The position numbers were made by a program, and so were the translations under genes. Below the pieces are notes generated by a model. The model ran no database searches, had not been told where the DNA came from, and saw only the letters and a list, made by a program, of their open reading frames with translations. A stretch of DNA of 64,000 nt from Escherichia coli. Lineage in GTDB: Bacteria; Pseudomonadota; Gammaproteobacteria; Enterobacterales; Enterobacteriaceae. The stretch lies in NCBI RefSeq assembly GCF_044647545.1, contig NZ_CP172818.1; one strand, given 5' to 3'. Positions 43,901 to 49,758 of this stretch are shown here, one piece after another (the first letter of the stretch is position 1; every line of letters begins with the position of its first letter).

Positions 43901-44750
43901 CTACACGCGGACACAATATGCAGAGCCGCTGGTCGAAAGTCGCTATCTTTACGACCCGCTGGGCCGCAGGGTGGCAAAACGGGTGTGGCGGCGTGAACGG
44001 GACCTGACGGGCTGGATGTCGCTGTCACGGAAACCGGAAGTGACCTGGTACGGCTGGGACGGCGACCGCCTGACCACGATACAGAACGACAGAACCCGCA
44101 TCCAGACGGTTTATCAGCCGGGGAGCTTCACACCACTCATCAGGGTCGAAACCGCCACCGGTGAGCAGGCGAAAACGCAGCGCCGCAGCCTGGCGGATGC
44201 GCTTCAGCAGTCCGGCGGCGAAGACGGTGGCAGTGTGGTGTTCCCGCCGGTGCTGGTGCAGATGCTCGACCGGCTGGAAAGTGAAATCCTTACTGACCGG
44301 GTGAGTGAGGAAAGCCGCCGCTGGCTGGCATCGTGCGGCCTGACGGTGGCGCAGATGCAAAACCAGATGGACCCGGTGTACACGCCGGCGCGAAAAATCC
44401 ACCTGTACCACTGCGACCATCGCGGCCTGCCGCTGGCGCTTGTCAGCACGGAAGGGGCAACAGAATGGTGCGCAGAATACGATGAGTGGGGCAACCTGCT
44501 GAATGAAGAGAACCCGCACCAGCTGCAACAGCTTATCCGCCTGCCGGGTCAGCAGTATGATGAGGAGTCCGGCCTGTATTACAACCGCCACCGCTATTAT
44601 GACCCGCTGCAGGGGCGGTATATCACTCAGGATCCGATTGGGCTGAAGGGGGGATGGAATTTTTATCAGTATCCGTTGAATCCGATATCAGACATCGAGC
44701 CCCCTGGGTTTATCTATGTGGGAGGATGCAAAATCGGGGGCATGTACTAA
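40971..44750 (+). CDS. rhsA: Rhs-family polymorphic toxin core protein: N-terminal PAAR motif, YD repeats, Rhs core; very short 12-residue tail after an EPPGF motif
   Basis: 1259-aa ORF; N-terminus [26 protein letters not shown] (PAAR); many YD/YxYD repeats; ends ...[39 protein letters not shown]. Confidence 0.92.
44238..44686 (+). repeat. Rhs core 3'-end repeat, copy A (inside rhsA)
   Basis: About 450 bp near-identical to 46623-47069 at a constant offset of about 2384 bp. Confidence 0.9.
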
Positions 44751-45754
44751 TGGTCTTTGCGGCATATCAGCTGTGATGAGAGGTGCATAAGTTTTTCATA
44801 GACCGCATATGACGCCTTAATAACAATAAAATTAAAATATATTTTCAATAAAATCAATAGCCAAATAAAATAAATAAATAAATTTTCCCTGCACCTAGAA
44901 CGTGGAGAAAGTTAGTACATACTATGGATGCAATAGCATTGACATAATGGTGGGACGAATATTTTCACTTCGACTAATGTGGTAGATATCAGATTTGGAC
45001 GAAATATTTTAAGCAAAGATGAAAATAATTAAAATAAACAACGAATAAATACCACCCCATTAATAAACAATAGATAACCACGGGAAGGAAATAACAAACG
45101 GAAAAGGATCCGATGCCAGAGTTATCGGTAATATTAAAAAAAAAAATATAAATAAAATAAATAAATTTTATTTAGCACTCCCATTTTTTTTACACAACAT
45201 GGCCATAATAATAATTTTAAAATAATAATGACGGGAAAGAGAGAAAGAAGGTAAACTGTAAAAGGATTACAAAAATTTGGTCTACAAATACAGGTTATAG
45301 TAAAAAAATATTTTTTAGAATTTATTGTATCTTTTTTTTTTTACAACAACACAGGTCGCAGTGTAATTACAGAGATATTAAAATAATGCTCAAATTTATG
45401 AAGCAGTGAGGCAGAAGAATATACATATAAACGCTTCATTAAAACAAGTGGGTAATTTGGTTAAAAATAAACTAACATTGAATTACAATATATGTTAAAA
45501 TCAGGCAACCAAAAAGAAAAAATATAAAATATGATTAACAACAAGTCTTGTTGAAGGCACCATTCACTCAGACCAAATTGCTGGTGGGGTTTTTATTAGA
45601 AAATAGGCAAAAATGATGGGGTAATTCTGAATTTTGGCCACGGAAAATAAGTATGTAAGGATAATCAAACATCGTGTGCGCTGATGGCAGAGTAGGTGGA
45701 GGACTCCAGACAGTCAAACGATAAAAAAAGATAGCCTTTATGGAGGCTCCTGCA
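44751..45754. other. Extremely AT-rich block without ORFs of 60 aa or more between rhsA and yibA; contains A11 (45136-45146) and T11 (45332-45342) homopolymers
   Basis: Visibly low GC and low complexity; ORF track shows no ORF on either strand. Confidence 0.8.
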
Positions 45755-46597
45755 ATGTCAAATACATACCAGAAAAGAAAGGCAAGTAAAGAGTATGGTT
45801 TATATAATCAATGTAAGAAACTAAATGATGATGAATTATTTCGCTTACTTGATGATCACAATTCCTTGAAAAGGATTTCATCTGCCAGAGTATTACAGTT
45901 AAGAGGTGGGCAAGACGCTGTTAGATTGGTAATTGAGTTCTGCTCTGATAAAAATTATATCCGTAGAGATATCGGAGCATTTATACTCGGGCAAATAAAA
46001 ATTTGCAAAAAATGCGAAGATAATGTGTTTAATATTTTGAACAATATGGCATTGAATGATAAGAGCGCTTGCGTTCGAGCTACGGCAATCGAGTCAACGG
46101 CTCAGCGATGCAAGAAAAACCCAATTTATTCACCTAAAATAGTAGAACAATCTCAAATTACTGCTTTTGATAAATCGACTAATGTCAGACGTGCTACAGC
46201 ATTTGCTATTTCTGTTATCAATGATAAAGCAACAATTCCACTATTGATTAATCTGTTAAAAGATCCAAATGGAGATGTCAGAAACTGGGCCGCATTTGCA
46301 ATAAATATCAATAAATATGATAATAGTGATATTAGGGATTGTTTTGTGGAGATGCTTCAGGATAAAAATGAGGAAGTCCGTATTGAAGCAATAATCGGAC
46401 TTTCCTACAGAAAAGATAAAAGGGTTTTATCTGTTTTATGCGATGAGTTAAAAAAAAATACTGTTTATGATGATATCATTGAAGCTGCGGGTGAATTAGG
46501 TGATAAAACGCTACTTCCTGTTTTAGATACTATGTTGTACAAGTTTGATGACAATGAAATTATAACTTCCGCTATTGATAAGCTGAAGCGTTCATAG
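45755..46597 (+). CDS. yibA: HEAT-repeat protein YibA
   Basis: ORF 45740..46597; start set at MSNTYQKRKASKEYGLYNQ giving 280 aa; repeated helical-repeat pattern. Confidence 0.85.
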   Translation: MSNTYQKRKASKEYGLYNQCKKLNDDELFRLLDDHNSLKRISSARVLQLRGGQDAVRLVIEFCSDKNYIRRDIGAFILGQIKICKKCEDNVFNILNNMALNDKSACVRATAIESTAQRCKKNPIYSPKIVEQSQITAFDKSTNVRRATAFAISVINDKATIPLLINLLKDPNGDVRNWAAFAININKYDNSDIRDCFVEMLQDKNEEVRIEAIIGLSYRKDKRVLSVLCDELKKNTVYDDIIEAAGELGDKTLLPVLDTMLYKFDDNEIITSAIDKLKRS

Positions 46598-47555: not shown

Positions 47556-49206
47556 TAACAATATACGGTTGTAGTTGCTATATTTGTAAAGAGATTACCC
47601 CATCGAACCGGAATAAATGAAAATGACTATATTTTATGAGTTACTATCATCATTGAACAATCAGCATATAAGATAACCTCACCAAAAGCAGTTTAAACCA
47701 TGGTAAGTTGTAGAAGTGGGACATCTCGGCACCCCATTTTTTGTATGAAAAGTTACGAGAAATATATATTTTAATTTTTTTTTATATTATATATTAACCA
47801 AAATTAAAAAAACAACAATTTAAATAAAAAATTATTTATTACTTATATATTAACAATATCATAATAAATTCATTAAAACCGCTAGTTATAAATAATTATA
47901 AAAAAATCACAAATTGTTAAAATTTAATATTAATTATTTTAAAACAACCTAATGATATAAGATGGGGATTTATAGATCTAAGTGAAAGAGCTTGTTACTA
48001 TATTTTTATTTTTCTTTTGTTCCGGTGATTTGAATGGTATTAGTATGTTGAAAAAAATAGAAAAAAAGTGGAGGGGTCTAAGCCATAATATATCATTAGT
48101 GAAGAAAAGATGATGCATAAACTGAAATATAATATGGCAAAAAAGAATTCAAAGGCATCATTCTACTCCTGACTATTTTTCACATTTCCTCGAAGTTAAA
48201 TTGAAAATACGAGACGCAATATTAAAATTATACAAATGAATTCCAGAAAATCACGTAACGCTGCTTTTTTTACTAAACAATTCCATTTTATGTTTAAAAA
48301 TTAGATATCTATTAGAAGCTGTTTTTTATTGTTATAGATCATCAAAAATACTCCTTATAATAAAAGAACAAAATTGATTAAAAAATTGAAAATATTTATT
48401 ATCCATTACAACAATAAAAAATAAATTATATATTCTATTTGACTATTGGTTATTTCGTAGATGGTTGGGAAATATAACGATTATTGGAAAGATCAGCATC
48501 TCGGGATTTTTACAAGCAATATTGATTTTGAAAAGGGTATTCCTTTTCACGATACCATTCCAGATTTACCTGTATCAGATCTTGCATAATTTCACGAGAG
48601 CTTTATTAATTGGATGTGACATTCTCAGATGAAATAAAGCGTCATATTGTATGGAAACGATTTATACAAATCCCCAAATATTATTATGTAAAAATTTATC
48701 AAATAGAAATCAGACAGATGCGAAATCCAATGAGATCAAACAGCTACAAATTTAAAAATATTAAAAAAAATCATCACAAACGTATTAAAAATAAAAAATA
48801 CAAAAACATATTATTTATCTTAAAAGAAATCACCTAAATAAACCTAGAAAAATCATAAAATTAAATAACAAAATACATACCAATTATGAAAAATCACCAA
48901 AAAAATCTCTCACATTCATTCTATGAATTATTATTTCACTAATAAATCTAAAATCATTGCATCTCTCTCAATAATACAAACAAAAAAAAAAAAACGTCAA
49001 TATAATCATTCTTATTTAACCAAAGCTTCCACACAATCGAAACAGCACGGAAATAAGCCGCACTGGCGTCGACGCGGTAATGAATGAAGACGACTGCAAA
49101 ATAAGAAGAATCCGTAAACAGCAGAATTAGTTCTCAGGATACCGCACACGCTAGTAATATACGAATGATAAGTATTCAAGGCAGTGCTAAGACGTAATAT
49201 CGGTAA
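47556..49206. other. Second extremely AT-rich block with only eroded coding remnants; contains a 13-nt A run (48982-48994) and a 9-nt T run (47775-47783)
   Basis: Only one ORF of 60 aa or more (48610..48837, lysine-rich, low complexity); short protein-like frames such as ...GWEIYNDYWKDQHLGIFTSNIDFEKGIPFHDTIPDLPVSDLA*. Confidence 0.75.
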
Positions 49207-49758
49207 CTTTTCCCGCCGCAGGGGCGGTATATCACTCAGGATCCGATTGGGCTGAAGGGGGGATGGAATTTTTATCAGTATCCGTTGAATCCGATAACTG
49301 ATATTGACCCGTTGGGATTAGCGACCTGTTTATACAGCATAACTTTAGGTATGCTTTCATGCGTTTCAGATACGTCAAGTGATGATAATTCTTATGGTGT
49401 GCTTACTATTTCAGTCGCCTCTGGTAATAATGGTAATAATATGCAATGTAAAAATAATCCTGGTTGTACACACTTACAAAATAGAGGCCCAATACCTCAA
49501 GGGGTATGGAGCTGGAATGTTAATGGTCCTGGAGCAACTAATAGAAAACCTAATGGTATACGTTTAGTACCGTCAGCAAATACAGAAACGTATAATCGTG
49601 ATGGATTTTTAACACATAGTTGTTTAAACGCTTTTGGTCCATCTTTAGGACCTCGATTCTGTTCCGAGGGGTGTATAACTGGTTCATCTAATGACATGCA
49701 AAAATTAAATGAGCTAATATTTTCAGAGCCAGATAGCACATTAACAGTGACGGACTAG
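49207..49758 (+). CDS. Orphan Rhs C-terminal tip: short core remnant ([13 protein letters not shown]) plus ~145-aa cysteine-rich putative toxin domain; no canonical start codon
   Basis: Open frame from 49207 after a TAA; ORF track starts at TTG 49285; 8 Cys in the tip; no domain assignment possible by eye. Confidence 0.6.
49208..49295 (+). repeat. Rhs core 3'-end repeat, copy C (internal-deletion derivative: left boundary ttcccgccg fused to the last ~80 bp)
   Basis: ttcccgccgcaggggcggtatatcactcaggatccgattgggctgaaggggggatggaatttttatcagtatccgttgaatccgata matches both ends of copies A and B. Confidence 0.85.

Follow-up and report, generated by a model that had tools for sequence, protein, structure and literature searches.

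Direct repeats of the Rhs core 3' end at the rhsA site of an Escherichia coli genome, and an apparent insertion-sequence edge on the shortest copy

The DNA analysed here (the window) is a stretch of 64,000 nt from Escherichia coli (NCBI RefSeq assembly GCF_044647545.1, contig NZ_CP172818.1), and all positions given are those of the whole window. It holds an rhs region with selB, selA and yibF on one side and yibH, yibI and mtlA on the other, and the interval between yibF and yibH is the chromosomal site of the RhsA element of E. coli K-12. An initial annotation had described here three nested copies of the 3' end of the Rhs core, called A, B and C below, and had taken the shortest, C, for a deletion derivative. 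The region was compared by blastn with 5,426 complete E. coli genomes, of which the closest were ST648-type, namely ampC_0069 (locus L003), CFSAN061771 (L011) and 20AR0192 (L001); the other loci compared were those of strain 1190 (L002), K-12 rhsB (L006), K-12 rhsA (L007), PE164, EC26 and M217. The ST648-type genomes were 100.000% identical to the window across tens of kb of flanks. The rhs region itself reads as follows.

40971-44750, plus strand: main rhs gene, an open reading frame (ORF) of 1,259 amino acids (aa) with a frameshift just past the core; most of the core is 100% identical to the ST648-type relatives.
44231-44686, plus strand: copy A, the final 456 nt of the main gene's Rhs core (96.3% alignment with copy B).
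44687-45560, plus strand: decayed RhsB-type toxin tip and immunity gene yhhH, with no ORF; 63-87% identical to L003, L001 and L011 with many indels, between flanks that are 100% identical.
44699, plus strand: extra G in the codons of the DPxGL motif, where the relatives read GACATCGACCCCCTGGG (DIDPLGL) and the window reads GACATCGAGCCCCCTGGG; stop codon at 44748-44750.
45755-46597, plus strand: yibA, intact, encoding a HEAT-repeat protein (NCBIfam PRK09687, E = 2.4e-139), with 0 differences from L003.
46615-47069, plus strand: copy B, a 455-nt core fragment that heads orphan module 1 and is the orthologue of the yibJ fragment in K-12.
47070-47545, plus strand: orphan tip B, a pseudogene of an HExxH metallopeptidase-like toxin, frameshifted already in the relatives and with four more single-base indels in the window.
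47720-48242, plus strand: decayed AT-rich spacer, where the relatives have an older transposase fragment.
48243-49215, plus strand: decayed remnant of a 1,292-bp insertion sequence (IS) of the H-rep/ISAs1 family (ISEc1-like), aligning end to end with the IS of L003 (8308-9599) at 67-85%; its right terminal repeat is the left flank of C.
49212-49295, plus strand: copy C, the terminal ~80-84 nt of core, heading orphan module 2; strictly core-derived from 49216, with 49212-49215 overlapping the IS end.
49296-49758, plus strand: orphan tip C, DPxGL motif and Tlde1 domain (LD-transpeptidase-like type VI secretion (T6SS) effector; Pfam PF10908, E = 5.4e-7).
49763-50284, plus strand: Imm57 immunity gene, cognate to the Tlde1 tip (Pfam PF15596, E = 2e-44), annotated as Imm57 in all relatives.
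50446-50677, plus strand: old internal H-rep fragment between Imm57 and yibH, orthologous to the K-12 yibU pseudogene (coordinates derived from alignment offsets to L003).

In the relatives the annotated order is rhs, yhhH, yibA, RHS fragment, hypothetical protein, ISAs1 transposase, RHS fragment, Tlde1-domain protein, Imm57 and yibH, with a main gene annotated as 'RhsB' of 1,408-1,411 aa. Identity of the window to L003 and L011 was 100% over yibF, most of the core, yibA, copies B and C, the Tlde1 tip, Imm57 and the intergenic DNA around them, and a divergent stretch within the main gene (41600-42200) was identical in other ST648-type genomes and is ordinary allelic variation. The GC content is about 0.6 in the core but 0.2-0.4 in the tips, a contrast that is the classic signature of a composite Rhs element.

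Local alignment of A (44231-44686) with B (46615-47069) gave 455 columns of which 438 were identical (96.3%); a single 1-bp indel lies close to the left edge, and the perfect runs measure 152, 57, 57, 47, 29 and 20 nt, the longest of them being the 3' end. Copy C (49212-49298) matched B at 85 of 87 positions (97.7%) and A at 101 of 109 (92.7%), the latter alignment extending through the PxxxxDPxGL-coding stretch to 49320, and the perfect runs to C were 79 nt from A and 78 nt from B. A 50-mer of the shared part occurred exactly three times in the window against an expectation of zero, and the three copies are directly repeated and share one reading frame. The near-identical direct repeats, two of ~450 bp and one short, are real, far beyond chance and essentially where the initial annotation had placed them, with the correction that the homology of A and B begins at 44231 and 46615, 7 nt to the left of the start first given and 10 nt to the left of the 9-mer TTCCCGCCG that had been read as a common left boundary (AGTG.GGT.TTCCCGCCGG).

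Copies B and C lie downstream of a full-length, same-clade rhs gene, lack the N-terminal delivery region and have stubs 96-100% identical to the end of the main gene, as expected of orphan modules. In orphan module 2 the tip is intact, in frame with copy C and without a single difference from the relatives; the RHS_core and Rhs_assc_core profiles match residues 1-36 of the C product (the core C-terminus), and Imm57 starts 5 nt past the stop codon of the tip. This Tlde1/Imm57 pair is the sole intact toxin/immunity pair at the locus, two cassettes downstream.

In orphan module 1 the core stub of copy B is followed by DPLGL codons and, after that motif, by a distinct tip, for which the ORF of a relative gave weak matches to Pfam Peptidase_M91 (E = 9e-4) and NCBIfam XopG/HopH. 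The tip carries one frameshift in the relatives, to which the window adds further frameshifts through indels at 47114, 47237, 47391 and 47532, together with two C>T changes (all within ~650 nt), and no such changes separate the adjacent copy B and yibA from the relatives. No immunity gene for tip B was identified in the degraded DNA downstream. At the left edge of copy B the same 31-nt yibA flank was found in K-12 (yibJ), strain 1190 and the ST648 strains, and this junction is thus a single ancestral event, inherited vertically or by recombination, and not a recurrent boundary. At the K-12 rhsB locus (L006 5888-6233) the yrhC pseudogene is a yibA fragment truncated by the left end of an H-rep (…GCTACGGCAATCGAGTCAACGG joined to CCAGGGAAAGAT), so that a unit of RhsB tip, yhhH and yibA is common to that locus and to the rhsA-site locus of the window.

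The left edge of copy C had been explained in the initial annotation by an internal deletion within a B-like cassette of 450 bp, possibly through cccgccg/cccgctg microhomology, which would have kept ttcccgccg and the last ~80 bp and so implied a defined boundary. Indeed all three sites carry the 9-mer exactly (44241, 46625 and 49210, besides an unrelated site at 27808; 0.68 expected in the window) and the microhomology cccgc(c/t)g is found at both putative deletion ends. However, the homology of A and B reaches 10 nt further left, and C lacks these ten bases (AGTG.GGT.). In L003 and L011, moreover, the DNA to the left of C belongs to the 3' end of an intact H-rep, an element of the ISAs1 family homologous to the H-rep of the K-12 rhsB locus (yhhI) over 1,292 bp up to L003 position 9599, with core homology starting from 9596. 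The terminal inverted repeats of H-rep read CCAGGGAAAGAT… on the left and …ATCTTTCCCTG on the right; the junction of IS and core in the relatives reads …GTAATCTTTCCCTG joined to CTGCAGGGGCGG, and the ST648-type sequence at the left edge of C is TTTCCCTGCTG. In the closest genomes of the same architecture TCTTTCCCTG is followed directly by CTGCAGGGG, which is the right terminal inverted repeat (…ATCTTTCCCTG) abutting the core.

A 221-nt query spanning this junction was matched over at least 80% of its length in 118 of the 5,426 genomes, and these natural genomes read TTTCCCTG and then CTGCAGGGG, i.e. an IS terminal repeat and then core. Copies of ISAs1/ISEc1 at unrelated loci (ydcC and others) matched only from query position 1 to positions 100-106, stopping at the same end, and Rhs cores matched only from position 96 on. 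The window reads CTTTTCCCG and then CCGCAGGGG at the same bases, and its 9-mer is made up of six bases of an altered IS terminal repeat and three core bases with a T>C change; it is the natural sequence minus one T and with one T>C. It lies in the last bases of a decayed patch (47720-49217), in which about 25% of positions are changed, and exists only through changes inside that patch. Seven of its nine bases also match the core in register, and its overlap with the in-register core cccgctg is the reason why the aligner starts C at 49212. No ORF longer than 75 aa remains in the window between 47720 and 49215, while the relatives carry a 378-aa ISAs1 transposase. On these junctions, the left boundary of C is an insertion-sequence end and the shared 9-mer boundary a coincidence. 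The IS junction largely refutes the deletion model, which we regard as highly improbable, and the idea that C had retained the left boundary of A and B is not supported. The 10-mer TATCGGTAAC just left of C (49198-49207) is identical to part of the decayed K-12 yibS stub (L007, ~7690) and also aligns, less well, to the H-rep end, making the ancestry of these ten bases ambiguous between yibS-like core and H-rep end.

In the displacement model for rhs loci, a full-length gene is followed by an array of dissociated tips with partial cores of variable length (Jackson 2009, PMC2935791). The length of core in front of the Tlde1 tip varies among strains as follows, and in some it is ~370 nt.

PE164: the whole main gene (4,179 nt) precedes the Tlde1 tip, which is attached to it.
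EC26: 1,048 nt of core, after ybfB, precede the Tlde1 tip.
Strain 1190: the first 296 nt of B, fused to the last ~85 nt across a GCTGCA microhomology, precede the Tlde1 tip.
K-12 (yibS) and M217: ~190-210 nt of core, decayed to ~76-85%, lie after yibG and before the Tlde1 tip.
ST648 strains and the window: ~80 nt of core lie after the H-rep and before the Tlde1 tip.

The core begins at 44231 where yibA is the upstream neighbour, at ~44501 after yibG, at 43665 after ybfB and at ~44607 after the H-rep. A site-specific cassette would show the same core start with different upstream neighbours, which was not seen; over ten loci, each upstream partner went with a single start, and stub length tracks the upstream partner, as the displacement model predicts. 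The suggestion of a defined cassette boundary is not supported, since stub lengths vary among strains and the B junction is one inherited event, and a defined left boundary was rejected on account of the IS terminal repeat at the edge of C together with this variable stub length. The boundaries of the orphan stubs are better regarded as historical accidents (recombination breakpoints and an IS end) than as a defined cassette site.

In strain 1190 (L002 11431-11510) the core fragment before the Tlde1 tip is missing 75 nt between two GCTGCA motifs. This fragment is consistent with a putative one-step microhomology deletion which would have excised, from a window-like ancestor, a segment reaching from the end of B through tip B and the H-rep. 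It speaks for the deletion model to the extent that derivatives keeping the left end of B and the last ~85 nt do arise, but 296 nt are kept at the left here, and not nine. In 20AR0192 (L001 9097-10704) an IS5 stands in place of a segment running from the 3' part of tip B over the H-rep and copy C into the 5' part of the Tlde1 tip. Imm57 is left there as an orphan, and this replacement is another sign of a locus in flux.

The extra G at 44699 shifts the frame of the main gene, which hence ends at 44750 with 1,259 aa and not with the 1,408-1,411 aa of the relatives; the main gene is toxin-less and disarmed by this frameshift, and the RhsB-type tip and yhhH behind it are no longer recognisable as genes. 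The DNHGKEITNRKGLPN-coding stretch that forms the RhsB-type tip's 3' end, single in the relatives, occurs twice in the window (45070-45140 and 45228-45300, ~160 nt apart), and the two occurrences have diverged differently. At 44660-44675 the 3' end of copy A encodes NFYQYPLNP, the B/C-type form, and is followed by an RhsB-type tip, whereas all examined relatives with such a tip encode GWNLYGYQLNP-ISDIDPLGL, i.e. NLYGYQLNP, and the NFYQYPLNP form precedes all other tips, those of B and C included. This chimeric end, which creates the 152-bp perfect run between A and B, fits the footprint that would be expected of gene conversion from B or C.

Two patches of the window (44687-45560 and 47720-49217) are 63-87% identical to relatives that are otherwise 100% identical, contain no ORFs, and show about 25% substitutions and about 30% deleted bases. 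They matter for the boundary question because the 9-mer of C sits in the last bases of the second. In that second patch there were 69 deletions against 10 insertions relative to the relatives, the bases retained were 34% of G, 41% of C, 74% of A and 64% of T, and GC fell from 0.37 to 0.26. Substitutions were spread evenly over codon positions 1, 2 and 3 (25, 23 and 24%) and only 8 of 35 deletions were multiples of three, so a divergent but once-functional IS lineage was rejected, and the patches appear, by their substitution and deletion pattern, to be unconstrained decay and not a divergent functional allele. Deaminase-type hypermutation was also tried, and there was no clear 5'-TC or other context, with only a mild tendency for a G after A to become A. 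Generic mis-assembly of repeats was weakened as an explanation by the intact multi-copy IS1 elsewhere in the window (32326-33095). The H-rep fragment at 50446-50677 is identical in the relatives and thus naturally decayed IS remnants also occur at the locus; the interior of the IS is matched at ~78% by this old fragment in L003 (10830-11061) and in K-12 (L007 8947-9169).

Neutral divergence of about 25% cannot arise in place beside DNA with zero divergence, which leaves imported ancient pseudogene alleles, localised hypermutation or a defect of the source sequence. The last of these, extended to all details specific to the window (the 9-mer of C, the additional G in A, the B/C-type end of A, the indels of tip B and both patches) as sequence errors or non-biological alterations, is a serious possibility, to which we give somewhat less than an even chance. 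The perfect identity of tens of kb of flanks beside such heavily substituted and deleted patches speaks for it, as do the even spread of substitutions over codon positions and the deletions without an excess of threes. So too does rarity: no match above 90% to the two patches was found by blastn among the 5,426 complete genomes, a 27-mer from decayed patch 3 (our numbering) was absent from the GTDB species representatives and the JGI metagenomes, and the truncated main Rhs protein was not on record in an exact protein look-up. On the other hand, the profile is unlike that of long-read errors, with deletions of up to 59 nt, a GC-to-AT bias and long homopolymers; the multi-copy IS1 is intact at 99.2%, so that repeats as such were not mis-assembled; and natural decayed remnants of core and H-rep at ~76-78% exist at the locus in K-12 (yibS, yibU). 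That the patches instead record real, localised and intense GC-to-AT and deletion-biased mutation, or import of an ancient pseudogene, hitting only displaced or dispensable toxin and IS segments, seems quite improbable. If they are real, then yibA, all three core copies, Tlde1 and Imm57 were left untouched, base for base identical to the sister genomes.

Taken as a whole, the locus is very probably a standard Rhs polymorphic-toxin locus built by successive C-terminal displacement. In this process a full-length rhs gene would encode the delivery shell, and each newly acquired toxin tip would displace its predecessor, which would come to lie downstream as a silent orphan together with its immunity gene and a variable 3' stub of core. 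Copy A is the core end of the main gene and copy B the 455-nt stub of the first orphan, joined to yibA by a junction inherited across E. coli lineages; copy C is the ~80-nt stub of the second (Tlde1 and Imm57), its left edge probably made by the abutting H-rep/ISAs1 element and not by internal deletion of a B-like cassette. Between near-identical direct repeats in one frame, homologous recombination of the RecA type, or gene conversion, can bring an orphan tip back onto the shell, and the proposal of the initial annotation that the repeats are a substrate for swapping the C-terminus is supported by the 96.3% identity of A and B over 455 bp, the 78-79-bp perfect runs to C and the common frame. 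With a longest perfect run of 152 bp between A and B, the copies are not too diverged to recombine. Recombination is predicted to delete 2,384 bp between A and B, 4,609 bp between A and C, and 2,226 bp between B and C. The A x C product would be a functional-looking Rhs-Tlde1 gene, an uninterrupted ORF of 4,179 nt (1,392 aa) that finishes with the Tlde1 domain and is followed after five bases by Imm57, and the PE164 gene at this locus has the same length and layout; A x B would attach a tip that is already pseudogenised. Rhs loci are arsenals for contact-dependent competition, in which repeated core stubs let the cell switch the toxin that is fired, and here the intact Tlde1/Imm57 pair would be one 79-bp crossover away from re-arming a disarmed main gene.

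The anatomy, identities, frames, domain content, IS junction and natural allelic series are observed directly, and from them we infer the historical order of events at the locus and that recombination occurs in the strain of the window. Several points nevertheless weigh against this account. The evidence for recombination in this strain is indirect, namely the PE164-type locus that equals the predicted A x C product and the chimeric 3' end of copy A, and the PE164-type loci could be ancestral and not A x C recombinants, as the series shows variability and not direction. Recombination between A and C would be much rarer than between A and B, with only 79 bp of perfect identity. Lastly, with two anomalous decayed patches in the locus, such details of the window as the frameshifting G, the exact 9-mer and the chimeric end of A are perhaps unreliable.

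The retention of stubs could also be explained if the orphan modules were self-expressed toxin/immunity pairs, with a promoter in the core end and an internal start, the stub being kept for its expression signals; we consider this unlikely. Such a view draws on Salmonella, where main and orphan Rhs toxins use an internal P2 promoter upstream of PxxxxDPxGL, and P2-like sequences have been reported upstream of many Rhs tips, E. coli included (PMC7043789). In the relatives, NCBI annotates a stand-alone coding sequence of 135 aa for Tlde1 downstream of copy C, and the relatives differ at 0 positions in Tlde1, Imm57 and copy C while the neighbouring DNA is degraded. However, C has only ~80 nt of core with no promoter-like site inside it. 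Promoter-like sites in the region numbered 31 against 31.3 expected from shuffles, with none inside C, and promoter or terminator signals were rejected as the reason for retention of the 80-nt stub since the counts equal the shuffled expectation. Effectors of the Tlde1 family reportedly act on peptidoglycan, a target that lies in the periplasm, and a cytoplasmic product without a leader would not obviously be toxic.

Successive displacement, the reading we prefer, places the locus among systems already described. A displacement array at this well-studied E. coli locus is already known and fits models published from 2009 to 2020, so the window is an illustration at the level of one locus and not a new principle. 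It shares with the arrays of Jackson 2009 (PMC2935791) a full-length rhs gene, dissociated tips with partial, variable cores, the repeated PxxxxDPxGL motif, distinct low-GC tips, and core stubs that are of the same clade as the main gene and nearly identical to it; nothing essential differs, although in the window an IS end bounds one stub and the main tip is degraded.

The K-12 RhsA element (rhsA-yibA-yibJ-yibG-yibS-yibW-yibV-yibU) occupies the same chromosomal site and has the same junction of yibA and core fragment, the yibJ fragment (L007 6198-6650) being the counterpart of copy B, yibS with yibV (PF15596/Imm57 family) that of copy C with Imm57, and yibU the old H-rep fragment. It differs in that the main tip of the window is RhsB-type with yhhH and not the K-12 RhsA tip, tip B is not the yibJ tip, yibG stands where the window has a decayed full H-rep, and the third stub of K-12 is longer (~190-210 nt, decayed to ~76%) than the ~80 nt of the window.

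In Salmonella Typhimurium rhs-main shares with rhs-CT-orphan a direct repeat of the core 3' end of 522 bp at 95%, comparable to the 455 bp at 96.3% in the window; recombination between them has been demonstrated experimentally and was selected during passage, fusing the orphan toxin to the shell after a duplication that kept the main immunity gene (Koskiniemi 2014, PMC3967940), whereas in the window such fusion is predicted. The window further differs in having two orphans, the distal one with ~80 bp in common with the main gene. The H-rep/ISAs1 (ISEc1) elements provide the model for the left flank of C, being 1,292 bp long, with terminal inverted repeats CCAGGGAAAGAT and a transposase of 378 aa, and lying in the AT-rich part of an Rhs element, as in K-12 RhsB (yhhI), while the element of the window is an ORF-less remnant of ~975 nt. 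Orphan cdiA-CT/cdiI modules (Poole 2011, PMC3150448) are likewise promoter-less toxin/immunity cassettes with short homology to the main gene, and act as a store from which tips can be switched through homologous recombination, but they belong to two-partner secretion and not to T6SS/Rhs, with a VENN motif in place of PxxxxDPxGL.

Outside the rhs region the window differed from the ST648-type reference in some accessory DNA. It is without the Fic-family gene of the reference (at 35410) and without its 6.5-kb segment of a YadA-like adhesin and DUF3251 (at 57388-57484). No colinear match above 97.7% to window 28500-35800 was found among the complete genomes. At 28913-33756 a yiaT-yiaV-type segment with an IS1 replaces the hicAB, GH127 and MFS genes of the reference, and this IS1 (32326-33095) is intact and 99.2% identical to IS1A.

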